This document shows, piece after piece, positions 15,823 through 43,667 of a stretch of 64,000 nucleotides of DNA; within the stretch, counting starts at the first letter, position 1; every line of letters starts with the position of its first letter. The position numbers and the translations under genes are program-made. This stretch comes from Sphingomonadales bacterium (GTDB lineage Bacteria > Pseudomonadota > Alphaproteobacteria > Sphingomonadales > Sphingomonadaceae), in contig JAIXOE010000028.1 of assembly GCA_027486895.1 (NCBI GenBank), positions 25,437-89,436 on the forward strand, written 5' to 3'. The notes under the pieces are model-generated. The model ran no database searches and was not told the origin of the DNA. It was given only the letters and a program-made list of their open reading frames with translations.

Positions 15823-15982
15823 ACGCGGGTTCCTAGCCCAAGCGCACAGCCCAAGCGACTCCTTAATCGTTCGCAATCCAGCCAAATATCTGTTTTTAAA
15901 AACAGCAAATTCCGCTAGGACCGCGCGATTACTTGGACGTGCTCCAAAGGACTCTCACCAAACCGGATTGGGTGGAAATTAA

Positions 15983-22628: not shown

Positions 22629-25514
22629 CTAAAGGCTCATTCCAATCGAGCGGGTCCGCTCGAACGACACAGACGCGGCAAGGTCGCGCGACAAATCGCG
22701 CCCCATGTCCTTGCCGAGACCAAGTTCCCGCGTCCGGTTGCGCAACAGCGATTCCACCTGTGGATCGCGTTCCAGACCTTTCGCCATGTCGGCCATGCGC
22801 CCCGCGATACGGCCTGCACCATTGTCATTGCCGCTCTGCTGCATCACCGCACGAGCCTGCCCTAGCCGCTGCCAGTCGTTCACGAAGCGGTCGGCTCGCT
22901 GCACAGGATCGGCGCGGATTTCAGACTCAAGCTGCATGGCGCGGATTGTGCCTCGGCTGCGGCCATCGGCTGCTTCGCGGGTGAGTTCAGGCTGTCGCTG
23001 CAAAGCGCTGGCAAGATCGGCGGCGGCATGGGGCCTAATCGCGTCGAGGGTCTTCCCGGCCTTGTCGAGCGCCTCGCGCTGATGAGGTAGCACCGGCAAT
23101 CCTTGCTCGCGCATCTGCGCCATATCGTCGGCGGCACGGGCAAAGCGTTCGACCGCACGGCGCTGGTTCGATAGGTTGGCCTGTTCGGTTGGCAGCGGTT
23201 CCAGCTTCTGCGCCTGCGGGCGGAAGCCCGCAAAGATGGATTTCGCACGCTCGGGCAATTGCCTTGCAATCTCCACAAGTCGTTCACGAAATGTGATCCC
23301 GCGCCGCTCGGCAAATCGCTGCTCGGGGCTGTAGTCGCTCGCCATGTCTTTGCCGCGCTCACGGCTGAGTGTGCGAACAAGCTTTGACTGATCGGCGAAG
23401 TCGTCGCGGCCATAATGCAGATCGACGCGCTGCCGGTGGCGCGACAACGCAACATAGGCACCGTGGCTGTCCATGCCGGGCGTCGCCAGAACATGCGCCC
23501 TGTCCACGGTCATGCCCTGCGCTTTGTGGATCGTGGCGGCGTAACCGTGATCGACATGCGCATAGTCCTTGGTGTCGAACGCGACGCTGCGGCCATCGTC
23601 GGTGCGCACCGCCATGCGCTGTGGCGTAACCTGCTCGACGATACCAAGCGTGCCATTCTTCACGCCAAGCCCGCGCTCGTTGCGGAGAAACATTATGCGG
23701 TCTCCGGACGCAAAGGCGCGTTCACCGCGCTCGGCTTTCACCGAGACATCGCCGCCCAACTCTCCACTCGCGCGCATCTTTCCGCGCGCCGCTTCATTAA
23801 GTTCGCGCACTTCGTCATTGGTGTGGGTGAGAATGATCCGCGTATCAGTTGGGAGAGCCTGACGGTCGCGATCCCAGCGCTCGATCAGGTCACTACGCGC
23901 GGCCTCGCGCGTCTCGGCAACATGCACCATCCCCCGCTCGTCATAAACCTGAACCGCAAGGCCGGGCCGCCCTGTCGCAAGGTGGCGTGTCGCATCCTGC
24001 TGCCAGCCTTTATGCTGGCGTCGCACTTCACTGATTTCGAAACCGCCATGCCGCTCATGGATGGCGCGGAACGCCGCTCCGGCTTCGATAGCCTGCAACT
24101 GTTGCGGGTCACCAACCAGCACGACTTTCGCGCCTGCATCGGCGGCGTGTGACAGGACGCGCTCCATCTGGCGCGTGCCGACCATGCCCGCCTCGTCGAT
24201 TACCAACACGTCGCGCGAAGTCAGTTGTTCGCGGCCCTGTCCCCATTGATATTCAAGGCTGGCAATGGTGCGCGAGGCAATACCCGAACCATGCTCAAGT
24301 CCCTCGGCGGCGATACCAGACAGGGCCGCACCGCGAACGGTGTAGCCCGCACTCTCCCAAGCCTCACGCGCGACGCCGAGCATCGCGCTCTTGCCGGTCC
24401 CGGCATAGCCGACAACGATACTCAGGCCGCGCCCGTCTGTAACATGCTCAAAGGCCGCGCGTTGCTCTCCCGATAGCACCAAGCCGCGCTCCTCGGCGCG
24501 CGTCAAAGCGTTCGCTTGGTCCTTCTCACCAACGCGATGCCGCTCTCGTTCTGCCATCAATTCGGATGCGCGCTGCAACCGCTGCTCGGTCTCGATCATG
24601 GCCCGCGAAGTGAACCGGTCTTCTCCGCGTCCGTCCTTGCCCAGCGCAATCAGGTCGGACGATGCGCGAACTGCACTTAGCGCCGCATCGAACTGCTCCT
24701 TCCCGTCGCTGTGCCGATGTACGAAAATGGCAAGGTCGCGGTTCGTGAAGGTGGCTTGGCTGTGCGTGATCGCATCGAGCGCGACACTGGGATTAGCAAT
24801 GATCCGCTCACCGTTGCGCTGTGCGACGGCGCGGTGTTCTTCGATCCGCTCGGCCTCAAGCCCGCGCTCGCCCATGCGAGAGGCGGCGGGGCCAATCTTG
24901 TCCTGCGGCTCCAGCTGAATGCCTTGCGCTTCTAAACTGCGGTGATCGACGCGGGCGTCGATATCGAGTTCGGCGAGCCGCTGATTAACATGCTCGGCCC
25001 AGCGCTCGCGCCACTGTTCCACCAACTCGGCCTTGTTCCACTCGCGCACCTTCGCGCCGAACCCGTCCTTGCCGACCTCGCGCATGGTCAGCATGACATG
25101 CGCGTGCGGTTTCGCCTGGCCGTCCTTGCCGATATCCCAATGCACGTTGAGATCGGCAATCATGCCCTTTTCAACGAACTCGGTCTTCACAAAGTCGCGG
25201 GCCAGCGCAATGCCTTGGCTCTTGTTCATCTCGCGCGGAATCGCAAACTCGACCTCGCGGGAAAGCTGCGCATCCTTTCGTTTCTCGGCGGCTTCGACCG
25301 CGTTCCAGAGTTTTTCGCGGTCGGCAAACTCGGGCGGCGCGCCCTCGGGCAGCATCACTTCAGAATGAACGACGCCGTCCTTGTTGGTGAAGTCGTGGTA
25401 GCGGTCGAGCCGCTCGTCGTGGAGACGCTCGGCTCCGCGATAGGCCGCTGCCGCCACAGCACTGCGCCCGCTGGCGCGGCTGATGACTTTGACCGAGAGA
25501 TGAAAGATTGCCAT
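22629..25514 (-). CDS. traA: Ti-type conjugative relaxase-helicase TraA (MOBQ)
   Basis: MAIFHLSVKVISR..AAAAYR catalytic Tyr, HWD..PHAH, helicase GYAGTGKS and DEAGM, HGYAATIHKAQG. Confidence 0.95.
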   Translation of the reverse strand: MAIFHLSVKVISRASGRSAVAAAAYRGAERLHDERLDRYHDFTNKDGVVHSEVMLPEGAPPEFADREKLWNAVEAAEKRKDAQLSREVEFAIPREMNKSQGIALARDFVKTEFVEKGMIADLNVHWDIGKDGQAKPHAHVMLTMREVGKDGFGAKVREWNKAELVEQWRERWAEHVNQRLAELDIDARVDHRSLEAQGIQLEPQDKIGPAASRMGERGLEAERIEEHRAVAQRNGERIIANPSVALDAITHSQATFTNRDLAIFVHRHSDGKEQFDAALSAVRASSDLIALGKDGRGEDRFTSRAMIETEQRLQRASELMAERERHRVGEKDQANALTRAEERGLVLSGEQRAAFEHVTDGRGLSIVVGYAGTGKSAMLGVAREAWESAGYTVRGAALSGIAAEGLEHGSGIASRTIASLEYQWGQGREQLTSRDVLVIDEAGMVGTRQMERVLSHAADAGAKVVLVGDPQQLQAIEAGAAFRAIHERHGGFEISEVRRQHKGWQQDATRHLATGRPGLAVQVYDERGMVHVAETREAARSDLIERWDRDRQALPTDTRIILTHTNDEVRELNEAARGKMRASGELGGDVSVKAERGERAFASGDRIMFLRNERGLGVKNGTLGIVEQVTPQRMAVRTDDGRSVAFDTKDYAHVDHGYAATIHKAQGMTVDRAHVLATPGMDSHGAYVALSRHRQRVDLHYGRDDFADQSKLVRTLSRERGKDMASDYSPEQRFAERRGITFRERLVEIARQLPERAKSIFAGFRPQAQKLEPLPTEQANLSNQRRAVERFARAADDMAQMREQGLPVLPHQREALDKAGKTLDAIRPHAAADLASALQRQPELTREAADGRSRGTIRAMQLESEIRADPVQRADRFVNDWQRLGQARAVMQQSGNDNGAGRIAGRMADMAKGLERDPQVESLLRNRTRELGLGKDMGRDLSRDLAASVSFERTRSIGMSL

Positions 25515-26273: not shown

Positions 26274-26609
26274 TCAGCCGCGTTCGTCGTCGGTAGGCTT
26301 GCCGCTCGCTTTGGCAAGGATTGCGAAACCGTCGGCGATCATGTCCACACCATAGCGAGTCGTGCTTTTGGCTTCGTAGCTGGTTTGGCGAACGCGTCCG
26401 GTGATGCGAACGAGATCGCCTTTGTCTGCCTTGACGAGACGGTCACGCAGCTTGCCAAAAAGCGTAACGCGGTTCCAGTGCGGGTCGGTCTTCCATTCGT
26501 CGCCATCGCGGCGATTATAGTTTGCAGCAACCGACAGGTGCGTGACGTCCTTGGCTTCGTCGATCTTGCCAATCCGTCCTATGATGTGAAATTCAGCGAT
26601 ATTCTGCAC
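26274..26609 (-). CDS. ssb: Single-stranded DNA-binding protein
   Basis: OB-fold motifs IIGRIG, WNRVTLFG, KGDLVRITGRVRQTSY. GTG start with a GGAG SD. Confidence 0.85.
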   Translation of the reverse strand: MQNIAEFHIIGRIGKIDEAKDVTHLSVAANYNRRDGDEWKTDPHWNRVTLFGKLRDRLVKADKGDLVRITGRVRQTSYEAKSTTRYGVDMIADGFAILAKASGKPTDDERG

Positions 26610-26618
26610 GTGACTTCT

Positions 26619-26808
26619 CCTGATCGCGTCAGGCGAAATGTCCTGACGGACATTAAAGGGCCGCGCGCTGCCCGCGCGCAAGCCAAAAAACGGAGGCTCC
26701 ATCCATGGAAACCGTAGGCGCATCGCGCCGGTTTTTTGCTTGCGGGCACAAGGGCGGCGCTGAGCGGCCAAACGTCCGTCGATCAAGGACATTCCTAACG
26801 CGGTCAGG
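26619..26808. promoter_or_regulatory. ~190-nt imperfect hairpin upstream of ssb (candidate single-strand promoter)
   Basis: Nested complementary arms (detailed in findings); minus strand reads TTGCGC-N18-TTTAAT within the left arm. Confidence 0.55.
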
Positions 26809-26861: not shown

Positions 26862-27782
26862 TCAGCGATGCAAACTCTCCTCATCGCCACACGGTTCGGT
26901 TTCGGTCTGGATTGTCGCATGATGAATGTTGAACTTGCTTTCGAGCATTTCAGCAAGAGCGCGTCGTATTGCTTCTGCATTGCCGCCTTCGGCTAATGCG
27001 ACATGGGCGGTCAGGCTCGCGTCGTCACCGGCAACCGACCATAAATGAAAATCATGAACGCCGGTAACGCCCTCGACTTCATTAATCGCCGAACGGATCG
27101 TTTGGAGGTCAAACCCGCGCGGCACGCCTTGCAGCAAAATATGCGTGGTATCGCGCAGCAAGGTCCAAGTGCGCGGCAGCACCCATAGGCCGATGGCGAT
27201 GGCAACGATGGGGTCGATCCAGTTTAGCTTCGTCACGTAAATCGCAATCGCCGCTCCGATCACGCCAATCGAACCGAGCATGTCGGCCCAGACTTCGAGA
27301 TAGGCACCCTTCACATTGAGGCTGTCATCTTTGCCGCCTGCAAGGATACGCATCGAAATAAGATTCACGATCAAGCCAAGGCTGGCAACTATGAGCATTC
27401 CCACAGACTCAACGGGCCTTGGGTCGAAAAAGCGCTGAACACCCTCAATCAACACATAGCCCGCGACCGCAAAGAGCAGAATGGCGTTGAAGGCGGCAGC
27501 CAGAATTTCAAAGCGACGATAGCCAAAGGTGCGTTTGTCGTCGGGCGGGCGCTGACCGATCTTTACCGCAGCAAGCGCAATGGCGAGCGCGGCGCTGTCG
27601 GTAAACATATGCGCCGCGTCGGAAAGCAACGCGAGGCTGTCAAATACAAACGCGCCAATTAACTCGGCGATTAGGAACGCCGTTGTTAGCCCGAGCGCGA
27701 TGGCGAGCCTTTTTGTGCTCGCTCCGGCACCGTGGTTATGTCCGGCATGACCGTCGCCGCCGTGATCGTGTGTCGCGCTCAT
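26862..27782 (-). CDS. czcD: CDF family Co/Zn/Cd transporter
   Basis: His-rich N-terminus, LSDAAHMFTD, RTFGYRRFEILAA, YLEVWADML, HDFHLW and HATIQTE. Confidence 0.9.
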   Translation of the reverse strand: MSATHDHGGDGHAGHNHGAGASTKRLAIALGLTTAFLIAELIGAFVFDSLALLSDAAHMFTDSAALAIALAAVKIGQRPPDDKRTFGYRRFEILAAAFNAILLFAVAGYVLIEGVQRFFDPRPVESVGMLIVASLGLIVNLISMRILAGGKDDSLNVKGAYLEVWADMLGSIGVIGAAIAIYVTKLNWIDPIVAIAIGLWVLPRTWTLLRDTTHILLQGVPRGFDLQTIRSAINEVEGVTGVHDFHLWSVAGDDASLTAHVALAEGGNAEAIRRALAEMLESKFNIHHATIQTETEPCGDEESLHR

Positions 27783-27839
27783 ATCAATGTGCCGCCTGTC
27801 CAATGAGTGCTTTTAACAAACCATGTTTCCTCTCCGCCG

Positions 27840-28220
27840 TTAGTGATTGTCATGCGTGCCATCGGCTTTCGTGGTTGTTTGCTTGCCGTTCTTCGCCAGC
27901 CACGCCTTCATCTGCGCGATCTCGGCTTCCTGCGCGGCAATCACTTCCTCGGCGAGCTTGCGAACTTCCGCGTCCTTGCCATGTTCGAGCGCCACCTTCG
28001 CCATTGCGACCGCGCCCTCGTGGTGCGGGATCATGCTGCGCATAAAATCGACATCGGCGTTGCCAGTGAGTGCAATGCCCATATCCTTGTGCATCTTGTC
28101 ATTCGCAGCCTTGAAAGCGGCAGTCGCAGGGCTGTTGGTCGATGCCGGAGCTTCGGCCTCCTTGTTCGCGGGCGAACAAGCGGCGGCGGCAATTGTGGCG
28201 ACCAAAATCAGTTTCTTCAT
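27840..28220 (-). CDS. DUF305 (CopM-like) metal-binding lipoprotein
   Basis: Lipobox AAAC and [17 protein letters not shown]. Start moved to ATG 28220. Confidence 0.85.
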
Positions 28221-28236
28221 TTCGGATTCCTTTCGA

Positions 28237-31425
<3,189 letters not shown>

Positions 31426-32664
31426 TCAATGGTCATGGCTCGCGCCCGACTTTTCGATGTCGGCGCGAATGAGAAATGCTCCCTTGGCGGCATAAGGCGT
31501 GCTGGGCTTGATGCCCGAAAGCACCTCGGTCCATTCGGGCGACTTGCGCCCGAGTTCCAACATGCGGACCTCGTAATCTTGACCGTAATTGGCAAAGACC
31601 ACCGTGAAGTCGCGGAAGCGTTGCAATGCTTCGGTGCGCACCGCTAGCGGCACCTGTACCGCGTTGATCGTCACACGGCCACGAAGCGCCATACCGGGAC
31701 GCAACCGTCCACCTCGATTGGGGACCGACGCCCGGACAAGCGCAGTGCCTGCTTCTGCATTGCCGTCGGGCAGATATTGGCCCAGCCGTGCCGCCGCGAT
31801 TGCGGTGCCTTCCATCGTTTCGATCTGCACGGCCATGCCGGGCTGGATTGCGCCCAAATCCTTGGGGAAGATGTTGAACACGACCGTCGTCTGCGCAGGG
31901 TCGGTGATGACATAGAGTGCGCGGTCGAAGGTCACATCGCCGGGGTTGCCATTGCGTTCGGCAACGACGCCGCTGACGGTCGAATAGACCGGATAGACTT
32001 GCAAGGACTCGCTCGACTCGATCCGCGCCAGCAATTGACCGCGCTTCACAGTGTCTCCGACCTGTTTTGTGACCGAGACAATCCGCCCCGGAAACTGGCC
32101 GCGAATCTCCGACCTTGCGGTCGTCGCCAACTGGACTGTCCCGTATAGCTCGCGCGTCTCACCGATGGTCGCAGGCCCCACAGTTTCAATCTCGATCCCG
32201 CCCGCCTTGGCAGCGTCAGCGGTAATCCGTGTGCGGCCTTCGGGGCTAGCATAACGCCAGACATGGCGTTTACCGTTCTCGACCGCGACAACTTCGACAT
32301 CGAAGCTGTGCGGTTCCTCGACCACGCCTTGACCAGTCAGATAGTCCTTCTCGGCCTTGAACGGGAACGTGTTGACCTCACCGCCCAGCCGCTTGAGCGT
32401 CACCGTCAGCTGCACGGTCTTTGCATCGACTGGTTTGCCGTCCTTTGTCGGATATATCCGGAACTGCGGCGGCACACCGTCCTCGAAGATGGTCATTTCA
32501 ACCGCGAAGTCGCCGTCCTTCAAAAGTCGGCCGTTGTGCGGCCCCTTCGCTGGTTCACCTTCCTCGCCATGCTCCTCGGCGGGCTCGCGGCTGCTACCGC
32601 AGGCTGCCAAGGGCGTGATGATAAAAAGCGCGACGGCAAGCCGCTTTATGATTGTCTTTTTCAT
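31426..32664 (-). CDS. czcB: RND periplasmic adaptor subunit
   Basis: Lipoprotein signal, GPHNGRLL N-terminal domain, lipoyl-like GDTVKRGQLL, ends SGASHDH. Confidence 0.9.
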   Translation of the reverse strand: MKKTIIKRLAVALFIITPLAACGSSREPAEEHGEEGEPAKGPHNGRLLKDGDFAVEMTIFEDGVPPQFRIYPTKDGKPVDAKTVQLTVTLKRLGGEVNTFPFKAEKDYLTGQGVVEEPHSFDVEVVAVENGKRHVWRYASPEGRTRITADAAKAGGIEIETVGPATIGETRELYGTVQLATTARSEIRGQFPGRIVSVTKQVGDTVKRGQLLARIESSESLQVYPVYSTVSGVVAERNGNPGDVTFDRALYVITDPAQTTVVFNIFPKDLGAIQPGMAVQIETMEGTAIAAARLGQYLPDGNAEAGTALVRASVPNRGGRLRPGMALRGRVTINAVQVPLAVRTEALQRFRDFTVVFANYGQDYEVRMLELGRKSPEWTEVLSGIKPSTPYAAKGAFLIRADIEKSGASHDH

Positions 32665-33899
32665 GGATTAGTCCCCCTGTCGGCAGCGGCGTCAAAGCGT
32701 CCGGTCAGCCGGTCAATTTCTGTTTGAAGGTCACGGTAGCGGATGACCGCATCGAGCCATTCGGCCTGCGCCTGAATGATCGCGTCGGCTGCACCCTGCA
32801 TGTCGCGGAAATTGAAGCCGCCGCGCGCATAGCCTTCGCGCACCTGCCGGAGCGCCTTGGTCGTCTGCGGATAGACTTCAAGGACGATGGCGTCGGCGCG
32901 GGCACGTGCGGCGTCGGCTTCGGCCCCAAGGCTAGCAAGACGGCGGAGCCGGTCAAGCCTTTGCCCTTCGGCGGTAAGCTCGATCCGAAGCTTCTCGGCT
33001 TGCGCCCGTGCGATATTGCCCTGATTGCGGTCGAAGCGTCCCAGCGGGATAGTCACGCCCGCAACCACCGCGACATCATTGGTCCCGCGAAGGAAGCGTG
33101 CGCCGCCGCTGAGCGTGTAATCCTGTCGCGTCCGAGTCTGTTCAACCGCCACTGCCGCCGAAGCCCGCGCAGCTGCTGCCTGAGCAAGCTCAGCGTCGGC
33201 AACCGCAAGCTGCCGTGCCGCTGGTATGCCGGATAACACCTCGCCCTCAGTCTCAACTTCTTCGGCTCTGCCATTCCAGAACGCAGCAAGTGCCGCGCGC
33301 GCGCCTTCGCGCCTCGCTTGCGCCTCGGTCAGATTGAGCCGCGCTTGCGTCACCCGCGCCGACGCGCTCGTCTCGACGAACAGCGGATCTTTATATCCGC
33401 GCACACGGCGCAATGCTTCCCGCTGCATTTCGACTTCGACACCAAGCCGCGTTTCCGCGATCTCGACAACATAGCCTGCGATCACAACGTCGAGAAACGC
33501 ACGCTGGACGGCGCTGACAAGTTCAAGCCGTGCGACCCGCGACGATGCTTGGGCAACGCCGATGTCACGTTCTGCATAGGCAACACGCGCGTCCCGTTTG
33601 CCACCGCGTTCAATCGTCTGGCTATAGGTGCCAGTGATCTCAGCTTGGCCAAAGACATTATAGGGTCCGCTGCCGATAAGGTTTTCGCCTTCGACGGTGA
33701 CGGTTGGGTTGGGGCGGACGCCCGCTTGGACTCGGCCAGCTTGTGCGGCAGCGACCGCCGCCTCATTGGCGCGGATCGACGGCGCGGCCTCAATGGCCTT
33801 GGCAATGGCTTCATCCAGCGTGAACGGCTCCGCAAAGGCAGCCGTAGCCGGAATGGCCAGCGCCGCCGCCAGCAAGGCGGTGCGCAATTTGGGAAACAT
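32661..33899 (-). CDS. czcC: TolC family outer-membrane factor
   Basis: Signal peptide, RPNPT, IERGGKR, IPLGRFDRNQGNI; first gene of the CBA cluster. Confidence 0.9.
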   Translation of the reverse strand: MFPKLRTALLAAALAIPATAAFAEPFTLDEAIAKAIEAAPSIRANEAAVAAAQAGRVQAGVRPNPTVTVEGENLIGSGPYNVFGQAEITGTYSQTIERGGKRDARVAYAERDIGVAQASSRVARLELVSAVQRAFLDVVIAGYVVEIAETRLGVEVEMQREALRRVRGYKDPLFVETSASARVTQARLNLTEAQARREGARAALAAFWNGRAEEVETEGEVLSGIPAARQLAVADAELAQAAAARASAAVAVEQTRTRQDYTLSGGARFLRGTNDVAVVAGVTIPLGRFDRNQGNIARAQAEKLRIELTAEGQRLDRLRRLASLGAEADAARARADAIVLEVYPQTTKALRQVREGYARGGFNFRDMQGAADAIIQAQAEWLDAVIRYRDLQTEIDRLTGRFDAAADRGTNP

Positions 33900-33908
33900 A
33901 TTAAAACT

Positions 33909-33970
33909 CCTGAACCGGATGACACGTTAAAGGGTCGGGCGCGACGCCCGCCCTAACGGCGCGGTTCAGG
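33909..33970 (-). promoter_or_regulatory. SD-sequestering mRNA hairpin upstream of czcC
   Basis: CCTGAACCG / CGGTTCAGG 9-bp perfect stem linking the upstream ORF stop to the czcC SD, with an inner GC-rich hairpin at 33932-33953. Confidence 0.65.
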
Positions 33971-34304
33971 CAGAGGGTGGTTCGGTGGGGGGTGCCTGAC
34001 TGAAAGAGGTCAGCGGGTTTGCACGGTGGAATGACAACAGCGCCTTCGCGGAGGCCGCAACGAGCGCAATGTCAGTCGTCCGTGCGTCCAGCGCGGTCGG
34101 GCAGTGATGATGGTGAAGGCTTTCACCCGCACCTTCATGCGAGGGTGCTTCGTCGCCGTGATAGTCAGTCATCGCGTCATGACCAAAGCTAACGCCGTGT
34201 TCTGTGTGATGGCTTGCCGGTTCCTCATGTGCGACCGCAGGCGCATGGATCGTGCTTGCGACAAGCGCGAAAACAAGAATCAAGCGGGCGAGCAAATACT
34301 TCAC
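33966..34304 (-). CDS. Small secreted His-rich protein ending PPTEPPSA (CzcI-like / leader candidate)
   Basis: GTG start with a GAGGA SD, signal peptide, HHHHC at residues 64-68, C-terminal proline motif. Confidence 0.7.
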   Translation of the reverse strand: MKYLLARLILVFALVASTIHAPAVAHEEPASHHTEHGVSFGHDAMTDYHGDEAPSHEGAGESLHHHHCPTALDARTTDIALVAASAKALLSFHRANPLTSFSQAPPTEPPSA

Positions 34305-34348
34305 AAGTCCTCGCTTAGTCGTGGCTCCCGGTTTGGGCAAATAGTTCG

Positions 34349-35143
34349 TCATTCGGAAGGGGCTTCAATTGCACGGCGCAAGTCGTCGGGAACAGGCATC
34401 GGTTGAAAAGCGCTGACGTTCGAACGCCCGGTATTACCGACCGGGATGCGTCCGGTCAGCGCGCCCAAAGGCGCAAGCGCGAGCCGGACAAGTTGCCCTA
34501 CCGTCTCACGCCAGTCGCGTTGTTCGACCGCAAAGCCGAGCATCGACACATGACTGGCCAGATGCAGCCCCAAATGCGGCTGCGATACGATGTGCGCTCG
34601 TTCGAGGTGCAGCCATGCAGTGGCCTGCTCCCCGGACGCTCGTGCGTTGCGAAATAAGGTCATTTCATCCGCGATGACGCGGCGCATCGGCAGCGTCCGC
34701 GCAAGCCCGCGCCATCGCCGCTGCCTGTGCGAATAGAAAATCTGGGCAAACCCCCAAATGAACGGGGTCAATATTCCGGCAGAAATTTCGACGTTATCGC
34801 TATAATGTGTCCCGCCACCGGCATCCGGCGCAATCGTAATCCAATGGTCCCACTTGGGAATAAGCGTGCTGTAGCCATTGTCGCGCAACCGCTTTGGCCA
34901 TTCGCCGGTTTCAGGCTCGTGGAGCGAGGTCACAATCCACTGCGTCCCGAAAGGGATAAACCCGAACAGACGCAACTTGACCTGATAGCGCCCGCCGGGC
35001 TGAAAGGCGTCGAGCGAGGTTTCGCCAACAGGAATGAAGCACACCATCGGCCATGCAATATGCTGCAACAGGGGCGCGGTCTGAACCTCTGCCCAAACGG
35101 TCGCGGTCGGCAGGTCGATCCTAGTCGAGCGGGAAACTTTCAT
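34349..35143 (-). CDS. SRPBCC-like domain fused to DUF3703
   Basis: Real start is ATG 35143 (ATGA overlap). N-terminal SRPBCC-like part; C-terminal HLERAHIVSQ and GRIPVGNTGRSNVSAFQPMPVP. Confidence 0.7.
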   Translation of the reverse strand: MKVSRSTRIDLPTATVWAEVQTAPLLQHIAWPMVCFIPVGETSLDAFQPGGRYQVKLRLFGFIPFGTQWIVTSLHEPETGEWPKRLRDNGYSTLIPKWDHWITIAPDAGGGTHYSDNVEISAGILTPFIWGFAQIFYSHRQRRWRGLARTLPMRRVIADEMTLFRNARASGEQATAWLHLERAHIVSQPHLGLHLASHVSMLGFAVEQRDWRETVGQLVRLALAPLGALTGRIPVGNTGRSNVSAFQPMPVPDDLRRAIEAPSE

Positions 35144-35766
35144 GCTGCAACCGACCGCAATTCGGCGTTCGCCTGCCGGAACACCTGAACGCCGCCAGTG
35201 AGCGCAAGTCCCGCCATGATCGAGGCAACAATCAGGTCGGGCCATGCGCTGCCGGTCCCAAAAACGCCAAGCGCTGCCAGCATCACAGCGACATTGCCAA
35301 TGGCGTCGTTGCGCGAGCATATCCAGACCGAGCGCATGTTCGCATCGCCGGTGCGGTAACGGTAAAGCATCAAGGCCACACCAACATTGGCTGCTAGCGC
35401 CAACGCGCCGATTGCGCCCATCATGGTCGGGTCCGGTTCGGTACCGTTGATGAAAGCAAGCACCGCGCTGGCAAAAACCCAGGCGGCAAAGCCAAGCATG
35501 AACAGCGATTTGAGCAATGCCGCCCGCGCCCGCCATGCCAGGGCTGCCCCGACGACCGCCAGACTGACTGCATAGTTCGCAGCATCGCCAAGAAAATCGA
35601 GCGCGTCGGCTTGAAGCGCGCGGCTGTCCGCCGCCGCGCCTGCACCCATTTCCACGAAGAACATGGCGGCATTGACGATTAGCGCAATCCAGAGAATGCG
35701 CCGCCAGCGCGGATCGGCCTTGGCCGTTTCGCTCCCGCAGGCGCTTTCGCAACAACTGTCCGCCAT
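35140..35766 (-). CDS. Short CDF-type cation transporter lacking the C-terminal cytoplasmic domain
   Basis: N-terminal CCESAC, ALQADALDFLGD and WICSRNDAIGN; 208 aa. Confidence 0.8.
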   Translation of the reverse strand: MADSCCESACGSETAKADPRWRRILWIALIVNAAMFFVEMGAGAAADSRALQADALDFLGDAANYAVSLAVVGAALAWRARAALLKSLFMLGFAAWVFASAVLAFINGTEPDPTMMGAIGALALAANVGVALMLYRYRTGDANMRSVWICSRNDAIGNVAVMLAALGVFGTGSAWPDLIVASIMAGLALTGGVQVFRQANAELRSVAA

Positions 35767-35802
35767 TCAACATCCTTCTCGACAAATCCCGAGTCGGACA
35801 TC

Positions 35803-35833
35803 TATCTACACCCTGTAGCAACTACAGGGTCAA
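35803..35833 (-). promoter_or_regulatory. MerR-type promoter/operator (CadR/PbrR-like)
   Basis: TTGACC-19bp-TAGATA on the minus strand with a perfect dyad ACCCTGTAG-caa-CTACAGGGT (35810-35830). Confidence 0.88.
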
Positions 35834-35850: not shown

Positions 35851-36258
35851 GTGAAAATCGGCGAACTCGCGAGTGCAACGGCAACCAAGGTCGAGACGGT
35901 GCGCTACTATGAAAAGATCGGCCTGCTGCCTCCGCCTGCGCGCACATCGGGGAATTACCGTGCCTATGGCAGCGAACATCTTGCCCGCCTGTCATTCATT
36001 CGCCGCGCGCGTGATCTCGGCTTCACGCTGGAAGCTGTGCGGGAATTGCTCACGCTGTCGGACGACAAGGCACAATCGTGCGAGGCAGTCGATGGCATCG
36101 CCCGCGTCCACCTCACCGAAATCGACCGCAAGGTTACTGATTTGACCGCGCTCCGCAACGAACTCGACCGTGTGATCGGCTCCTGCCGCCACGGGACGGT
36201 CGCCGATTGCAAAATCATCGAAACATTGGGGCCAAGAGTAAGAGCCAACATCGTTTAG
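35851..36258 (+). CDS. MerR family regulator, three Cys (CadR/PbrR-like)
   Basis: VETVRYYEKIGLL HTH; Cys in SCEAV and in C-x7-C (CRHGTVADC). Confidence 0.9.
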   Translation: MKIGELASATATKVETVRYYEKIGLLPPPARTSGNYRAYGSEHLARLSFIRRARDLGFTLEAVRELLTLSDDKAQSCEAVDGIARVHLTEIDRKVTDLTALRNELDRVIGSCRHGTVADCKIIETLGPRVRANIV

Positions 36259-37612: not shown

Positions 37613-38002
37613 TCAACTAGGTTCAAAGGCCTCGATAATCGGACATCGCCCATCGCCGCCCTCGGCACATTCATCCGCCAAGCGCCGAAGCGATTTTCGC
37701 GCGGACTGGAGTGCCGCAATTCTCTCGTCAATCTCAGCTATCCGCTTGTTTGCGAGTTCGCGCGCCCTCGCCCGGTCTTCGGTAGCGTCCAAGGCAAGCA
37801 GTTCGCCGATCTCTGCAAGCGTGAATCCTCCGGCCTGTGCCGCTCTGATAAAACGCAGACGGCTGACGTCAGTTTCGTCATACCGCCGAACCCCGCCGTT
37901 ACGTTCTGGCTCAACGAGCAGGCCTCGCCGCTGGTAAAAGCGGACGGTTTCGACGCCCACTCTGCCCGCCGCTGCCAATTTTCCTATCGTCATTGCATTC
38001 AT
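37613..38002 (-). CDS. MerR family regulator, two Cys (CueR-like loop)
   Basis: TIGKLAAAGRVGVETVRFYQRRGLL and C-x7-C (CAEGGDGRC); no Cys at the MerR C82-equivalent position. Confidence 0.88.
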   Translation of the reverse strand: MNAMTIGKLAAAGRVGVETVRFYQRRGLLVEPERNGGVRRYDETDVSRLRFIRAAQAGGFTLAEIGELLALDATEDRARARELANKRIAEIDERIAALQSARKSLRRLADECAEGGDGRCPIIEAFEPS

Positions 38003-38005
38003 CGC

Positions 38006-38037
38006 TTGACTCCGTACTATGCTACGGAACCTATATA
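38006..38037 (+). promoter_or_regulatory. MerR-type promoter/operator of mer-like sequence
   Basis: TTGACT, dyad TCCGTA-N6-TACGGA, extended 19-20 bp spacer to TATATA. Confidence 0.85.
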
Positions 38038-38072
38038 GGCTGGGTGACGTTATCTGCCAACAAGGAACACCT

Positions 38073-38849
38073 ATGACCCAAGCCGCAATTTCAACGCCAG
38101 CGAAAGCCAGTGCCGCCGCCAAAACCGCCACCATCTATCGCATGGTGATGCCGAACCATACCTGCCCTTATGGTCTGAAGGCGCTCGACCTGCTCAAGCG
38201 CAAGGGCTTTACTGTCGAGGACCGCTGGCTGACAGCGCGCGAAGAAACCGACGCGTTCAAAGCCAAGCACAACGTCCAGACGACACCGCAAATCTTCATC
38301 AGCGGCGAGCGTATCGGCGGACATGACGATCTCCGCCGCTACCTCGGCCTGTCAGTCGCCGATCCGAAGGCGACCACCTATCAGCCGGTCATAGCGCTGT
38401 TTTCAATGACCGCCTTGATGGCGCTGGCTGCGAGTTTCGCGGTCTATGGCTCGCCTTTCACCGGGCGCGCCGCCGAATGGTTCATCGCCTTCAGCATGAT
38501 CATCCTCGCGATGCTCAAGCTACAGAATGTCGACAAGTTTGCGACAATGTTCCTGAACTACGACCTGCTCGCGAAACGCTGGGTGCCTTACTCGCGCATC
38601 TATCCATTTGCCGAAGGGCTGGCTGGCGTCCTTATGGCGGCGGGCGCGCTCAACTGGCTGTCGATCCCGGTCGCTTTGTTTATTGGCGGCATTGGTGCGG
38701 CATCGGTATTCAAAGCGGTCTACATCGACAAGCGCGAGCTAAAATGCGCCTGCGTCGGTGGCGATAGCAATGTGCCGCTGGGCTTTGTCTCGCTCACCGA
38801 GAATGTGATGATGGTCGGGATGGCCATTTGGATGATTTTCGCACATTAA
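38073..38849 (+). CDS. Glutaredoxin-MauE/DoxX fusion membrane protein
   Basis: TCPYG and TTPQIFISGERIGG (Grx fold) followed by a TM region with YDLLAKRW and CACVGG. Confidence 0.82.
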   Translation: MTQAAISTPAKASAAAKTATIYRMVMPNHTCPYGLKALDLLKRKGFTVEDRWLTAREETDAFKAKHNVQTTPQIFISGERIGGHDDLRRYLGLSVADPKATTYQPVIALFSMTALMALAASFAVYGSPFTGRAAEWFIAFSMIILAMLKLQNVDKFATMFLNYDLLAKRWVPYSRIYPFAEGLAGVLMAAGALNWLSIPVALFIGGIGAASVFKAVYIDKRELKCACVGGDSNVPLGFVSLTENVMMVGMAIWMIFAH

Positions 38850-39652: not shown

Positions 39653-39856
39653 TTACTTATGGTCCATGCCACCCATGTCATGGCCTTCATGCTCGTCACC
39701 GGACTTGGCGTCCTTGTCCTTGCAGCAGGCCATCTTGCCATGTTCGTCCTTTTTGCAACAGCAGCACTCCTTTTCAGGGGTAGGTGCTGGATCGGCGGCA
39801 AAGGCAGCGGTGGACATGGTGAGCGCGAGAGCACCCAAAAGATACTTGGTTTTCAT
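39653..39856 (-). CDS. 67-aa secreted Cys/His/Met-rich micropeptide
   Basis: GGAG SD, signal peptide ending AFA, ECCCCKK..MACCK..HEGHDMGGMDHK. Confidence 0.75.
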   Translation of the reverse strand: MKTKYLLGALALTMSTAAFAADPAPTPEKECCCCKKDEHGKMACCKDKDAKSGDEHEGHDMGGMDHK

Positions 39857-39869
39857 GATTTAACTCCGA

Positions 39870-40208
39870 TTATAGATTGAAAAAACAGTGCGCGCCGTGC
39901 CTTCGCGGAGGCGGGATTGGCGGTTTGAGTGCGCCGCCCGACAATTGCGCGCTGGCCGAAAGATTCGGGACCGCGATGACCCGCAAGAGCTGCGTTACGT
40001 CGGCGGTTGCCACGGGCGGAAAGGCACAGGCATGACACGAACGCGCCGCATCGCCACCTTTCTGTCCACCCTTTCCGTCACGATGATCGGGAATGTCCTC
40101 GCAATCCGCCATCATTGCGATTGTTTCTGTTTGAACAGGCGCGGCGCAAATCGGTGCTGCCCGCAGCACGAGCGCAATTGCGAGAAAACAGGCAGCGAGT
40201 ATTTTCAT
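39870..40208 (-). CDS. Small secreted CxxC / polyproline protein (CutF/CruR-like leader candidate)
   Basis: ATG 40208 (ATGA overlap with the PepSY gene), signal peptide, DC at 35-36, CHAC at 58-61, PPIPPPR at 96-102. Confidence 0.65.
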   Translation of the reverse strand: MKILAACFLAIALVLRAAPICAAPVQTETIAMMADCEDIPDHRDGKGGQKGGDAARSCHACAFPPVATADVTQLLRVIAVPNLSASAQLSGGALKPPIPPPRRHGAHCFFNL

Positions 40209-40927
40209 GCCGTGCGCCGCTTGCGCCGAAACGGCCAGCGGATGAACAGTAACACCGAGCCTGCAACGCCGAGGATCAGGCCTCCGATGGCAAATGCCAG
40301 CAGCCACCATGTGTTGAAATTCTCATGGTTCTTCCAATCCATGATGTGGAGGCTCCAGAAAAAATCATAGAGCCGCCATGTGCCGGTGCGAACGGCGGTG
40401 ATTTTCCCGGTATCGACGGCAACAAAAATACTGGTGGCATCGGGGTCAGCATAAGCGATACGCCACGCAGGCAGAGCAGCCCGATATTCAGGGCTTTCAG
40501 TCGTGACGCGCGATGCCTTGGAAACCGGCTTCTCGGCTGACTTCCACGCGGCATTCGCAATGGCCGTTGCTTGGGCGGCACCGACTGGCGGAATTAGCTC
40601 GCCTGTTTGGGCATCGAAGAGTTTGATGCCTTGGGCGGTCGTCACTTCCGCAACCGCGACACTTCCCATCATGTGCCAGTTGATAGCTTGGACCGGCGCT
40701 CCAGCCATTGCGTTTATCTGCGCCGGATCGGCGAACTTGATGCCTGCCGGAATGATCATCACCGTTTCACGGTCTACCAAATGCTCACCGCGCACCTTCT
40801 CGATGGGCAGGAAGCTCATAATTACGCCACTGGCGAACCAGATCAGCAACTGCGCGCCAATAACCAAAGCCAACCATTTGTGGATACGGCTTGCCGTTAG
40901 ATGGATACGGGTGCGTCTGCTGCTCAG
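40205..40927 (-). CDS. PepSY-associated TM helix protein (probable non-canonical CTG start)
   Basis: RIHKWLALVIGAQLLIWFASG and WRLYDFFWSLHIMD. The conserved HKW motif lies upstream of the track's TTG start at 40873. Confidence 0.78.
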   Translation of the reverse strand: MSSRRTRIHLTASRIHKWLALVIGAQLLIWFASGVIMSFLPIEKVRGEHLVDRETVMIIPAGIKFADPAQINAMAGAPVQAINWHMMGSVAVAEVTTAQGIKLFDAQTGELIPPVGAAQATAIANAAWKSAEKPVSKASRVTTESPEYRAALPAWRIAYADPDATSIFVAVDTGKITAVRTGTWRLYDFFWSLHIMDWKNHENFNTWWLLAFAIGGLILGVAGSVLLFIRWPFRRKRRTA

Positions 40928-41850
40928 AACCAGATCCTTATCCCTGCCACAAGGCTGATAGTTTCAGGATCTTCGCCTGAAGCCCGAGAAAAGCGCGCGG
41001 TTGCACCTGTCTGCTTGCGCCATTCCACGCCAATGTAGGGCGCTATTTCCTGCTCGATCTCATAGCGCAGGCGTAACCCGGCTTCGAAATCTGTCAATCC
41101 TGACCCGACACCAATAGCGCGAATGTCCTGAAAAGCGATATTGGCTTCGATCCTCGGCTGCAAAATCAGCGATTGGGTGATCCGCTGGTCGTATGATGCC
41201 TCCAGCCTCGCGCGCACCTCGCCCTTGTTCGAGACAAAGCCAGCCGCATTCATCTTGAACCAATAGGGGGCTATGCCCTCCACACCGGCGACAAGATAGG
41301 TGCGCGACGGGTCGGGCTTTATGTCATACCGGACACCGGCTTGCAGGTTCCAATAGGGCGCTATTGCGCGCGAATAGAGTGCTTGCAACTCCAGATCGTC
41401 AATGCGTTCACCGAATGCGCCTTCGCCTTCAAACTTCACCCCAAACCGGTTGATGTTACCGCCGGTAAAGGCCTCGCCTTCAAACCGGTAGCTTTCTTCA
41501 CCCTTTTGGAAGCCGACTTCGAGCAGGTCGATGGTCACCAACGAATAGCCCATGCCACCTACTTCATAAGCCAGCTCCTTGCGAGACTTTGCCATAATGT
41601 CAGCGCCAAATATCGCATCAGCCGCATGATCCTCTGGCGGGGCTGGCGCTGGCGCATTACCGACCTCGTCGCTCGGAGGCATTTCAGCCGCACTTGAACC
41701 CATGTCATGACCGGCATGGGGATCGTTTTCGGGAGGTGGCTTGGTAGGCTCGGCCTTGACGGCGGGCATGTCATGCCCCTGATGCCCCGATTGTGCGAAC
41801 GCGGGGGTTGCCAGCAATAATGCGGCAGGAAGCAGCAACAAGGTGTTCAT
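40924..41850 (-). CDS. copB: Copper resistance outer-membrane protein B
   Basis: His/Met-rich N-terminus, YSRAIAPYWNLQAGVR, GLRLRYEI..APYIGV, terminal WF. Confidence 0.93.
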   Translation of the reverse strand: MNTLLLLPAALLLATPAFAQSGHQGHDMPAVKAEPTKPPPENDPHAGHDMGSSAAEMPPSDEVGNAPAPAPPEDHAADAIFGADIMAKSRKELAYEVGGMGYSLVTIDLLEVGFQKGEESYRFEGEAFTGGNINRFGVKFEGEGAFGERIDDLELQALYSRAIAPYWNLQAGVRYDIKPDPSRTYLVAGVEGIAPYWFKMNAAGFVSNKGEVRARLEASYDQRITQSLILQPRIEANIAFQDIRAIGVGSGLTDFEAGLRLRYEIEQEIAPYIGVEWRKQTGATARFSRASGEDPETISLVAGIRIWF

Positions 41851-43622
41851 TGCCCTTCCTCTTCATGCCGCACAGTGACAACACGGAACATTCCAGCGTG
41901 CATGTGCATAAGCATATGGCAGTGGAACGCCCAGTCGCCCATCGCGTCCGCCGTGAAATCGAATGTCACCTTGGCACCCGGCAGTACGTTGACCACGTTC
42001 TTACGCGGATATCGCCCTTTCTGTCCGTTCACCACTTCGAAGAAATGGCCGTGCAGATGGATCGGGTGCGGCATCATGGTGTGGTTGATGAGGTTCACCC
42101 GCACCCGCTCATTGTGGCGGAACGGCAATGGCTCAGTCTTCTCGCTATATTTTTCGCCGTCCATCGACCACATATAGCGCTCCATATTGGCCGTAAGGTG
42201 GACGTCGATTTCACGCGATGGCGTACGCTGGTCGGGATTAGGTTCAAGCGCGCGGAGCTGGCTAAGCGTCAGCACGCGGTGCGGCACTTTCTCCAAACCG
42301 GTTGGCCGCTCGCTGTTCCGATCCAATGGCATCGGCGCAAGACTGGCTACACCCGGTCCCATCTTCACCTGCGGCGCGACCGACGGGTCACGCATGTTCA
42401 TAGAACTGTGATCCATGCTTCCCATTGCAGCCATTTCTTCCGGCATCATATTGCTATGGTCCATGCCTGCCATGTCGCCGCCACCGCTGCCATGATCCAT
42501 GCCCATGTCTTTCATGGTGAGCAAAGGACGTTCACGAAGCTCGGGTATTGGTGCGGTCATGCCCATTTGCGGAGCCAAAGTTGCGCGGCACTGGCCTGAA
42601 CGGTCAATCGATTCAGCGATAAATGCGTAAGGAATCGCTTCTTTAGGCTCAATGATCACGTCCCACGTTTCGGCAACCGCAATCTGGAACTCGTCGGTTT
42701 CAACAGGCGTTAGCGGCAGCCCATCCGACGCAACAATCGTCATCGGCAGGCCCGGAACGCGAATGTTGAAATTGCTCATCGCCGCTGCATTGATAATGCG
42801 CAGCCGCACCCGCTCGCCGGGTTTAAAAATGCCGGTCCAATTGCCCATGCTGTCATGGCCGTTGATCAGATAGTGATAATAAGCGCCGGTGACATCGGCG
42901 ATGTCGGTCGGGTCCATCAACATCTGGCCCCACATCATGCGTTCGGACAACGGCTGATCTTCGCCTTTGGCAAGGCCAGCAAAGGTCTGTTTACGCTTGT
43001 TGAAATAGCCTGCCTTCTGCTTCTGCTTGGTAAAGTTCACATGCGCGTGCGCGAAACTCCAGTCCGACAACACCAGGACATGTTCACGGTCATAAGCAAT
43101 CGGGTCTTTGCCCGCAGGATCGACGATCAACGCGCCATACATCCCCATCGCTTCCTGCATATGCGAATGGCTGTGATACCAATAGGTGCCGTGCTGCTTC
43201 ATCGGAAATTCGTAAGTGAAGCTCTCGCCGGGGCCGATGCCGGGATAGCTTACGCCGGGAACTCCATCCATGTGGAAAGGAAGCAGCATCCCATGCCAGT
43301 GAACCGACGTATCTTCGTCGAGCGTGTTGCGCACCACGAGCTTTACATTCTGGCCTTCACGCAGGCGAATGAGTGGTCCCGGTAGCGTCCCGTTGATGGT
43401 ATAGGCATGGCCGGTTTTCTTGCCGATCTTGAACGCCGATTGCCCGACGCTGACTTCGATATTATCGCCCGATAACATGCCGGGTTTACCGGCGAGGCTG
43501 TGCAACCCATGCGACCCACTTTTTGCCCAAGCGGGAAATAAAGGCGCAAGCGCCATCCCACCGCTCGCAAGCGCTGCACCGCGCAAAAGGTGTCGGCGAT
43601 CTACCGGAGTTTTCAGGGTCAT
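41847..43622 (-). CDS. copA: Copper resistance multicopper oxidase
   Basis: Tat signal DRRHLLRG; Cu motifs HWHG, WYHSH, HPIHLHGH and HCHMLMHMHAGM; Met-rich insert. Confidence 0.96.
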   Translation of the reverse strand: MTLKTPVDRRHLLRGAALASGGMALAPLFPAWAKSGSHGLHSLAGKPGMLSGDNIEVSVGQSAFKIGKKTGHAYTINGTLPGPLIRLREGQNVKLVVRNTLDEDTSVHWHGMLLPFHMDGVPGVSYPGIGPGESFTYEFPMKQHGTYWYHSHSHMQEAMGMYGALIVDPAGKDPIAYDREHVLVLSDWSFAHAHVNFTKQKQKAGYFNKRKQTFAGLAKGEDQPLSERMMWGQMLMDPTDIADVTGAYYHYLINGHDSMGNWTGIFKPGERVRLRIINAAAMSNFNIRVPGLPMTIVASDGLPLTPVETDEFQIAVAETWDVIIEPKEAIPYAFIAESIDRSGQCRATLAPQMGMTAPIPELRERPLLTMKDMGMDHGSGGGDMAGMDHSNMMPEEMAAMGSMDHSSMNMRDPSVAPQVKMGPGVASLAPMPLDRNSERPTGLEKVPHRVLTLSQLRALEPNPDQRTPSREIDVHLTANMERYMWSMDGEKYSEKTEPLPFRHNERVRVNLINHTMMPHPIHLHGHFFEVVNGQKGRYPRKNVVNVLPGAKVTFDFTADAMGDWAFHCHMLMHMHAGMFRVVTVRHEEEGQ

Positions 43623-43667
43623 AGGGAATCCATATTTAGGTGCTGACCATGATACGCAGGTCAAAGA

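Follow-up and report, generated by a model that had tools for sequence, protein, structure and literature searches.

We examined a 64,000-nt stretch of DNA from a Sphingomonadales bacterium (contig JAIXOE010000028.1). We call this whole stretch the window, and all positions are numbered within it. The window contains a czcCBA operon for a heavy-metal efflux pump, and a small open reading frame (ORF) for a His-rich, putatively exported protein lies just ahead of czcC (Table 1). We will refer to the small ORF as the leader. The leader, the stem described below, and czcCBA are all read on the minus strand. czcC's Shine-Dalgarno sequence (SD) is predicted to pair with the end of the leader, including its stop codon, and this pairing is conserved in related loci. 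We consider it moderately likely that the small ORF encodes a DUF2946/CutF-like leader peptide that acts in cis on czcCBA.

Table 1. Features in and around the leader-czcCBA locus, in window positions.
Feature	Positions	Strand	Evidence or remarks
Leader ORF, divergent DUF2946/CutF-like exported His-rich protein	33966-34352	-	128 aa (ATG 34352)
Predicted Sec signal peptide	34230-34352	-	Basic n-region, hydrophobic LLARLILVFALVAST, HAPAVA/HEE with A-x-A cleavage motif; inspection only
HHHHC putative metal-binding motif, residues 80-84	34101-34115	-	Alignment conservation
C-terminal arrest-like tail LTSFSQAPPTEPPSA, residues 114-128	33969-34013	-	Alignment and codon analysis
Outer stem, 5' arm (anti-SD), CU-G-CCUGAACCG	33962-33973	-	Last two codons, UGA, and 4 nt beyond
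Inner GC-rich hairpin with extended lower stem	33926-33960	-	Core arms 33933-33941 and 33945-33953
Outer stem, 3' arm, CGGUUCAGGAG	33907-33917	-	Contains czcC SD AGGAG (33911-33907)
czcC-like outer-membrane efflux protein (OEP), 412 aa, gene with the sequestered ribosome-binding site	32661-33899	-	Pfam OEP, E = 8.5e-26
czcB-like membrane-fusion protein (MFP)	31426-32664	-	Pfam HlyD_D23; NCBIfam IhpB and CzcB/NccB, both below cut-off
CzcA-type heavy-metal resistance-nodulation-division (RND) pump	28237-31410	-	TIGR00914, 1574 bits vs cut-off 701
DUF305 gene	27840-28310	-	Same-strand string, after CzcA
Second cation-diffusion-facilitator (CDF) gene	26862-27803	-	Same-strand string, after DUF305
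DUF3703 domain gene or segment	34349-34687	-	Pfam, E = 2.5e-39; stop overlaps leader ATG as ATGA
CDF gene, first in same-strand string	35140-35766	-	Pfam Cation_efflux, E = 2.7e-16
MerR-type promoter	35803-35833	-	TTGACC 35833-35828, 19-nt spacer, TAGATA 35808-35803
Divergent MerR-family metal regulator gene	35851-36258	+	Pfam MerR_1, E = 1.2e-20; MerR-DNA-bind, E = 1.5e-21
MobA/MobL relaxase	22629-25514	-	Near metal-resistance genes
Single-stranded DNA-binding protein (SSB)	26274-26792	-	
YchF GTPase	8828-9928	+	
MutL	13990-15885	-	

The end of the leader is predicted to pair with the czcC Shine-Dalgarno sequence

The 3' end of the leader reads ...CCA CCC UCU GCC UGA, with the stop codon at 33968-33966. 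The 9-mer CCUGAACCG (33970-33962) contains this UGA and is the exact complement of CGGUUCAGG at 33917-33909 (9 nt, 100%), with 44 nt separating the arms. The ATG of czcC is at 33899-33897 and its SD, AGGAG, is placed 7 nt upstream; CGGUUCAGG overlaps the AGG of this SD. In the minimum free energy (MFE) fold from ViennaRNA, the stem is lengthened by a C-G and a U-A pair past a bulged G, so that the entire AGGAG is paired. There is one dominant fold, with an MFE of -37.0 kcal/mol, versus -25.6 +/- 2.9 in dinucleotide shuffles (z = -3.9), and just 1 of 200 shuffles was as stable as the native fold. An earlier sequence-only reading of this DNA had described the pairing, the UGA within the 5' arm, the overlap with the SD by way of one bulge, and the inner hairpin. 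All of these were confirmed on the minus strand.

The stem is conserved and covaries in related loci

For comparison, we collected 50 loci from scans of genomes and metagenomes, ten loci from distant members of the leader family, and one locus from an annotated Novosphingobium plasmid. The loci from the genome scan are all from Sphingomonadales or from metagenome-assembled genomes (MAGs) of unclassified Alphaproteobacteria. The stem architecture recurs in 59 related loci. Both the outer stem and the inner hairpin are predicted in 27/27 unique close-range spacers, and nine diverse representatives fold alike (z from -2.2 to -4.5). Across the loci, the stop codon is 47-59 nt from the SD, and a few loci require a one-base bulge in the outer stem. 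In the locus on the plasmid of Novosphingobium ES2-1, the leader directly precedes the MFP gene and there is only a short core stem. The stop codon is UGA in 58/58 of the loci used for the test of cognate arms (below) and also in the ES2-1 locus, which was read separately.

The pairing is maintained as the sequence changes. In a MAFFT alignment, 94.7% of the cells in the outer stem are paired; one pair changes from CG to AU and from CG to UA, and another from GC to UA. We also ran an anchored analysis, with ungapped arms fixed on the stop codon and the SD (27 distinct arm pairs, 500 shuffles). Here, 90.5% of cells are paired, both sides have changed in 15 cells, and the covariation score is 0.208, versus 0.096 in the shuffles, with 0/500 shuffles reaching the observed values. 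Pairing is intact at all five core positions (CCUGA/UCAGG) in 27/27 distinct arm pairs. Four core cells deviate from the common pair, by three kinds of single-side change that all preserve a wobble pair: C to U in two cells (where the last codon is GUC), U-A to U.G in one (where the SD is GGGAG), and G-C to G.U in one. The distal pairs can be wholly rebuilt, as in loci L055 (CCUGAUUCA/UGAAUCAGG) and L057 (CUGACCAAAUU/AAUUUGGUCAG). The mean contiguous helix is 8.0 bp for cognate arms and 6.4 bp for non-cognate arms, and 0/10,000 permutations reached the observed total. The sequence-only reading had named covariation as a check on the inverted repeat; across the 59 loci, the repeat is conserved with compensatory changes. 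The CutF-type feature, a stem-loop that is predicted to sequester the downstream SD, is present in the window and in all the relatives, with covariation.

Where the flanks of the related loci are long enough to show it, the order is again leader-czcC-czcB-czcA. Distant family members are located upstream of OEP or MFP-RND genes; some of these have no OEP gene, and their leader is followed by the MFP gene. L058 (GCA_947476735.1, ~1857-1996) has no OEP gene. What comes after its sequestered SD is an ORF of 23 codons (MSLQFCAEHG...), and the UAA of this ORF shares bases with the ATG of the czcB-like gene (UAAUG). This ORF looks like a remnant of czcC that was retained as a coupling ORF. One Sphingomonadales MAG has two paralogous leader-czcCBA operons (L001 and L017, on NCJG01000017.1 and NCJG01000018.1). 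The two leaders share 93% and 41% identity with that of the window, and both have the tail and the stem. The exact locus of the window was found in metagenomes from groundwater, rock, soil, freshwater, and biofilm.

The inner hairpin is kept in 27/27 unique relatives, with sequences that are unrelated to each other. Clade variants include GGGCGGGCG.., GGCGAGC.., UGCGCGGC.., GGAGGCA.., and GCGUGAACGC.., and the hairpin is always retained. A scan of 33.0-36.5 kb with terminator and promoter consensus sequences found no terminator at the 33925-33960 hairpin; the sole terminator match in that range (34759-34740) is within an ORF and at chance level. The sequence 3' of the window's hairpin is CCCUUUAACG, and the equivalent sequences in the relatives (read by eye) are not consistently U-rich, although some have a short U-run (UUUUCG in L050 and AUUUGUU in L019). 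Because the U-tract is inconsistent, the inner hairpin is probably not an efficient intrinsic terminator. That the repeat might behave only as a terminator had been listed in the sequence-only reading as an outcome that would refute it, and this outcome did not occur. The hairpin may instead clamp the outer arms or stabilize the leader transcript.

We also considered that the UGA and the hairpin might specify selenocysteine or readthrough, as with a bacterial selenocysteine insertion sequence. There are 12 in-frame codons past the UGA in the window and 7 in L013, while L019 has a second stop at once. Since the in-frame extension is not conserved, and since the spacer lengths of the relatives differ by non-multiples of 3, we rejected this idea.

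The leader peptide has a near-invariant C-terminal tail

The leader could begin at GTG 34304, as the sequence-only reading had it, which would give 112 aa. This start is possible, but most database gene calls use ATG 34352 (128 aa), which overlaps the upstream stop codon as ATGA. A word-indexed search found 61 homologues of the leader with 97-47% identity; those that come with a name from their source are annotated as "hypothetical". Conservation along the alignment falls mainly into three regions: an N-terminus ending in HAPAxA/H, the HHHHCP motif, and the last 15 residues (LTSFSQAPPTEPPsA). The signal-peptide region keeps H36, A41, and H42 in every sequence and P38 in at least 90%. The metal motif has no variation at H82, C84, or P85 and very little at H81 and H83. 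Most positions in the last 15 residues are invariant among 38 sequences with overall identity down to 43%. The body of the leader diverges far faster (25-95% identity across loci) than CzcC does (60-93% in most loci). The first ~45 nt of czcC are almost identical across loci.

In an exhaustive profile search, 199 clusters (at 50% identity) had a representative with E <= 1e-3. We computed frequencies from 149 of the 199 representatives, anchored at the C-terminus. The metal motif is at positions -48, -47, -46, and -45, with frequencies of 0.89, 0.91, 0.93, and 0.79 for H, H, H, and C. In the tail, the frequencies are 0.99 for L/M at -15, 0.96 for S at -13, 0.83 for A at -9, 0.99 for P at -8, 0.87 for P at -7, 0.97 for E/Q/D at -5, 1.00 for each proline of the second PP (-4 and -3), and 0.89 for A at -1. 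The tail pattern, L-x-S-x3-A-P-P-x-[EQD]-P-P-x-A, is near-invariant in the family. In all members with the strict pattern, the distance from the CP of the metal motif to the C-terminus is 42-44 residues, and it is nearly always 43.

Most positions of the tail have 3-4 synonymous codons, and most columns have one amino acid. For example, Pro is encoded by CCA, CCC, CCG, or CCT, Ser by TCT, TCG, TCA, or TCC, and Ala-110 by GCA, GCT, or GCG. Because the amino acids of the tail are mostly fixed while the codons vary, the selection here is on the peptide. The final Ala codon is GCC in 22/22; the single exception is GUC, which keeps the pairing as G.U. Because the last codon is fixed as GCC, the selection at this codon is on the RNA.

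DUF2946 leader peptides have CXXC and RAPP motifs at conserved spacing (PMC9426467). By position, the analogues in this family are HHHC (-48 to -45) and [Q/T/S]APP (-10 to -7); the spacing is fixed, a His replaces the first Cys, and there is no Arg. The spacing of the metal motif, the invariant Pro-rich end, and the fast-evolving body match the published hallmarks of DUF2946 leaders (PMC9426467). Among the relatives, 20/38 match DUF2946 with E <= 0.1 (best E = 5.5e-5). Judging from these similarities, the leader is best described as a divergent relative of DUF2946 and not as a member that passes the threshold. We also compared the leader to the four operational criteria for CutF-like proteins (PMC9973294). 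Three of them hold outright: the length is under 150 aa (128 or 112 aa), the C-terminus is Pro-rich (...SQAPPTEPPSA), and the gene lies 66 nt ahead of czcC (OEP), with czcB and czcA after it. For the remaining criterion, a Sec signal peptide, the assessment was by inspection only.

A tblastn search of a plasmid collection matched only two Novosphingobium plasmids, from strains ES2-1 and THN1; whether pMOL30 is in this collection was not checked. A search of plasmid DNA gave weak matches to DUF3703 and nothing else.

A ribosome at the second PP would unmask the czcC start

We modelled the ribosome by forcing the mRNA beneath it to be unpaired, up to +12 from the first base of the P site, and computing the cost of opening the region from the SD to the AUG. 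We used this opening free energy as the read-out and discarded the probability that the SD is unpaired, which is dominated by weak alternative 3-bp helices. The median opening cost is 8.4 kcal/mol for the free mRNA and 8.1 kcal/mol for a ribosome stalled at the first PP (QAP/P). The cost falls to 2.3 kcal/mol with Pro125 in the P site, 4.3 kcal/mol with Pro126, and 4.1 kcal/mol with the last Ala in the P site and the stop codon in the A site. Given these lower costs, a ribosome that dwells at the second PP or at the stop codon would be expected to unmask the ribosome-binding site of czcC, while a stall at the first PP would not. The sequence-only reading held that a ribosome paused at the final PP-S-A codons would cover the 5' arm, and this agrees with the energies: in the model, the site is freed at the second PP or at the stop codon.

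The leader lies in a string of metal-resistance genes with a divergent MerR regulator

The same-strand string runs, in order, CDF, a frame that ends in DUF3703, leader, OEP, MFP, CzcA-type RND, DUF305, and the second CDF. The best NCBIfam match for CzcC is the divalent metal exporter subunit IhpA, below the cut-off. The pump protein scores above the cut-off of the CusA/CzcA family model, and from residue 402 it carries a motif of the type DFGxxxDGAxxxVEN, which in transmembrane helix 4 is the signature of divalent-cation pumps of the heavy-metal efflux (HME) RND family.

Upstream of the leader, a single open frame of 490 aa (34349-35821, minus strand) extends from within the first CDF gene to the stop codon of DUF3703. 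From ATG 35143, which overlaps the CDF stop codon as ATGA, a segment of ~150 aa runs into DUF3703 with no stop. In L057, DUF3703 is a separate gene of 117 aa. We detected a DUF3703 segment upstream of the leader ORF in 26/49 of the related loci that we compared.

The spacer between the MerR gene and the first CDF gene (84 nt) contains a promoter at the head of the string. Between its two hexamers is a perfect 9-bp palindrome, ACCCTGTAG-TTG-CTACAGGGT. This layout (TTGACC, 19 nt with the palindrome, TAGATA) is that of the classic MerR-type promoter. The czc gene string is probably under transcriptional metal control by the divergent MerR-type regulator. Given this regulator and its promoter, the leader would be a second layer of control and not the sole regulator. 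The sequence-only reading had noted that no two-component regulator is adjacent to the pump. We found no histidine kinase or response regulator among the ORFs scanned in 22.6-40.3 kb (not every ORF there was scanned), but a MerR regulator and its promoter do head the string, which leaves the argument from a missing regulator incomplete. A second MerR gene is at 37613-38134 (minus strand). The distant relative L058 has the same layout, with MerR divergent from CDF, and then the leader, CzcB, and CzcA.

The relaxase and the SSB gene flank the metal-resistance genes, and the housekeeping genes for YchF and MutL are a few kb away. With housekeeping genes so close to the relaxase and the SSB gene, it seems that the metal-resistance genes belong to a mobile element that is integrated, not to a plasmid.

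The window contains two other ORFs that resemble CutF or its relatives. The CutF/CopL-like ORF at 10057-10374 (plus strand, 105 aa) has a signal-peptide-like start, HGCIGC, and the C-terminal tail ...ARPTIPPPRS. It has no Pfam match, and neither does the 459-aa ORF downstream. Its spacer to the next ATG (10422) is 47 nt, AT-rich, and has no obvious stem. The DUF2946-like ORF at 39870-40310 (minus strand) has SCHAC and ...KPPIPPPRR plus 9 residues. It stops 13 nt before a 67-aa Cys/His-rich exported ORF at 39653-39856 (minus strand; ..KECCCCKKDEHGKMACCKDKD..), whose GGAG directly follows the stop codon. Adjoining it are DUF411, CopB (40924-41850), and a multicopper oxidase (41847-43664).

Proposed mechanism and alternatives

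We propose that, in the free mRNA, the SD of czcC would be locked in a stem of 9-11 bp, whose 5' arm is the GCC codon of the leader, the UGA, and the next 4 nt, while the inner GC hairpin would keep the arms of the outer stem together. If a ribosome occupies the second PP of APPTEPPSA or the stop codon, it would cover the 5' arm and free the SD, so that a second ribosome could start on czcC. The longer the ribosome dwells there, the more pump would be made. By analogy with CutF, the invariant Pro-rich tail would determine the dwell time by arresting or slowing translation, and a divalent metal on the HHHHC of the chain, as it is exported co-translationally, would modulate this time. The HHHHC would sit at a fixed distance of 41-43 residues behind the peptidyl-transferase center. 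The candidate metals are Zn, Co, Cd, or Ni, which are likely given the type of pump. If the analogy holds, then more metal would lead to more pump, and the MerR promoter would add cytoplasmic sensing at the level of transcription. Thus, we infer the stalling, its dependence on metal, the identity of the metal, and the direction of the response by analogy; the idea that the leader acts in cis only is an analogy as well.

A more specific idea, which we raise tentatively and with some doubt, is that this is the first arrest peptide for divalent metals (Zn/Co/Cd/Ni). Metal bound to HHHC would prolong the dwell at EPP-x-A-UGA, an end whose stop codon is itself the anti-SD of czcC, and, together with MerR, would give a two-compartment, AND-like control of the pump with no two-component system. 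The metal may be bound while the nascent chain is coming out of the ribosome or passing into SecYEG.

Several observations weigh against a metal-responsive leader that acts in cis. The window's leader is below the gathering threshold of Pfam DUF2946 (PF11162; E = 1.1e-3, 20.1 bits, cut-off 23.7). The RAPP of the DUF2946 family is QAPP in the window's leader (no Arg), the first PP is replaced by APL in relative L037, and Leu is found at the first PP in 12% of the family. With just 41-43 residues from the Cys to the second PP, the metal motif would be barely outside the ribosome at the time of stalling. In two loci (L014 and L020), A changes to U at position 6 of the 5' arm (CCUGAUCC), which gives a U.U mismatch; these two loci are mutually unrelated, and the nearest relatives of each keep an intact stem. 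The locus is present in DNA runs, and RNA runs have sparse fragments only. One 151-nt metatranscriptome contig, from a variant, covers 33891-34041; this is compatible with co-transcription, and it could also be carry-over of DNA. Finally, the RNA data are explained equally well by coupling without metal sensing, and in Cupriavidus metallidurans, CzcI is reported to be a periplasmic quencher of CzcCBA that acts in trans (PMC10127602).

These last points bring us to plain translational coupling. Because the stop codon is within the 5' arm, every terminating ribosome should open the stem, and termination by itself would unmask the SD, so that stalling modulated by metal would play no part. The tail and the HHHC would then serve the mature protein in the periplasm, for example as a CzcI-like modulator of the pump's activity. 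This would fit with the ATGA overlaps (35143 and 34352), which point to a chain of genes coupled in series at translation. On the other hand, no part of this fast-diverging protein is better conserved than the 15-residue tail, and its distance from the metal motif is fixed across ~150 clusters. Both are signatures of arrest peptides and of DUF2946 regulators, and not of a folded binding domain (PMC9426467). Also, the CzcI of C. metallidurans itself lacks the Pro motif (PMC9973294). We therefore consider coupling alone to be rather unlikely. CzcI does show that a role in trans is possible, and such a role and regulation by the leader are not mutually exclusive.

Control of transcription in the manner of CruR seems improbable to us. 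Here, a ribosome on the C-rich tail would shield a loading site for Rho, and once it left, with czcC untranslated, Rho would terminate transcription within czcC. Or, the hairpin could be a weak terminator or a stabilizer of the 3' end that gives a separate leader transcript. The last ~18 codons of the leader (34020-33961, minus strand) form a C>G bubble (C 0.48, G 0.15), which resembles the Rho utilization (rut) region of cruR (PMC9426467), and C. metallidurans has both a monocistronic czcI mRNA and a czcICBA mRNA (PMC10127602). The U-runs of L050 and L019 would also fit with a terminator, but the negative terminator scan and the lack of a consistent U-tract argue against one. Furthermore, the conserved and covarying element is the outer stem that contains the SD, which a terminator does not need, and the spacer is short and structured, unlike the 162-nt spacer of cruR-bfrG. 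Rho-dependent polarity, when czcC is untranslated, could reinforce the proposed switch.

High-GC genomes have many chance hairpins, and there are six other imperfect inverted repeats within 800 nt. Nevertheless, it is very hard to believe that the stem is a chance inverted repeat, a repetitive extragenic element, or a DNA operator. In 59 loci, the position of the element with respect to the stop codon and the SD is unchanged. The compensatory changes, along with the variable arm spacing (47-59 nt), fit RNA pairing and not a fixed DNA operator. The relatives' 25-95% protein identity contradicts a single recent mobile copy. When 25-40 kb was scanned permissively against Rfam, no family matched the stem element and there were two chance-level matches elsewhere, and we saw no repeated copies of the element in the stretches that we examined.

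If a leader that senses divalent metal is confirmed, this would extend metal sensing by nascent chains beyond copper, and it would explain how czcCBA operons without CzcRS are tuned. The fixed spacing between the HHHC and the tail constrains where sensing could occur. The subfamily is a clean test case, with a defined peptide signature, a short covarying RNA switch, and a divalent-type pump, and its members on plasmids of named Novosphingobium strains (ES2-1 and THN1) could make experiments practical.

Comparison with known systems

To our knowledge, CutF and CruR are the only DUF2946 leader peptides that have been studied experimentally; both respond to copper, with opposite modes. In the cutFOG operon of Rhodobacter capsulatus, a stem-loop shields the SD of cutO, and a copper-induced stall at the C-terminal Pro motif of CutF is proposed to melt it; this requires the signal peptide and the metal motif, and it is modulated by elongation factor P (PMC9973294; bioRxiv 10.1101/2025.02.05.636593). 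CutF-like genes most often precede OEP genes (CusC/CzcC/SilC), and some are noted as not specific to copper and may sense other metals (PMC9973294; bioRxiv 10.1101/2025.02.05.636593). How the CutF-like genes upstream of RND pumps act was left open (PMC9973294).

Like CutF, the window's leader is a short ORF (<150 aa) with a predicted Sec signal peptide (by inspection), a putative Cys/His metal motif, and a Pro-rich C-terminus. Also like cutF, it is directly upstream of a metal-detoxification gene that shares its strand, with an intergenic stem-loop that is predicted to shield the downstream SD. Unlike CutF, the metal motif is HHHHC instead of CxxxC, the tail is APPxEPPxA instead of PPP, and the target is an HME-RND pump with a divalent-cation signature instead of a multicopper oxidase. 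The stop codon of the leader itself forms part of the anti-SD arm, the match to DUF2946 is below threshold, and the system is known from sequence alone.

CruR (Bp2923 of Bordetella pertussis) likewise keeps a conserved distance between its metal motif and a C-terminal xAPP near the stop codon (PMC9426467). In both cases the coding tail is C-rich, and CruR acts on downstream metal-transport genes of the same operon (PMC9426467), as we propose for the window's leader. CruR has RAPP, and copper relieves stalling, which leads to Rho termination and represses an importer, whereas the window's leader has QAPP and a second PP. No SD-sequestering stem is described for the 162-nt spacer of CruR, while the 66-nt spacer in the window forms one in our predictions.

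As with SecM-secA (and VemP and MifM), an exported leader with a C-terminal arrest near its stop codon (proposed, in our case) would open a stem-loop that hides a ribosome-binding site. But the tail LTSFSQAPPTEPPSA lacks the SecM motif and has no similarity to it (FxxxxWIxxxxGIRAGP), and the downstream gene is czcC, not secA. Also, SecM, VemP, and MifM sense export activity and target secretion factors. The sequence-only reading had proposed SecM/CutF-style control by the His-rich peptide. The likeness to CutF is supported by the arrest-peptide signatures and the divergent kinship to DUF2946; at the level of motifs, the likeness to SecM is not.

Like the window's leader, CzcI and CzcI2 of C. 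metallidurans are encoded right before czcC, in their case as part of czcICBA; they are small exported proteins. CzcI was placed among the CutF-like proteins, in cluster 20 of a sequence similarity network (Ozturk et al.; PMC9973294). Compared by description, CzcI differs from the window's leader in that it has no C-terminal Pro motif (PMC9973294) and is reported to quench CzcCBA from the periplasm (PMC10127602).

What is new here is a subfamily of ~200 clusters (at 50% identity) with HHHC, 43 aa, and APPxEPPxA-COOH; its association with divalent-type czcCBA operons; and a predicted SD-sequestering stem, supported by covariation, in which the anti-SD is the last codon of the leader and its UGA.

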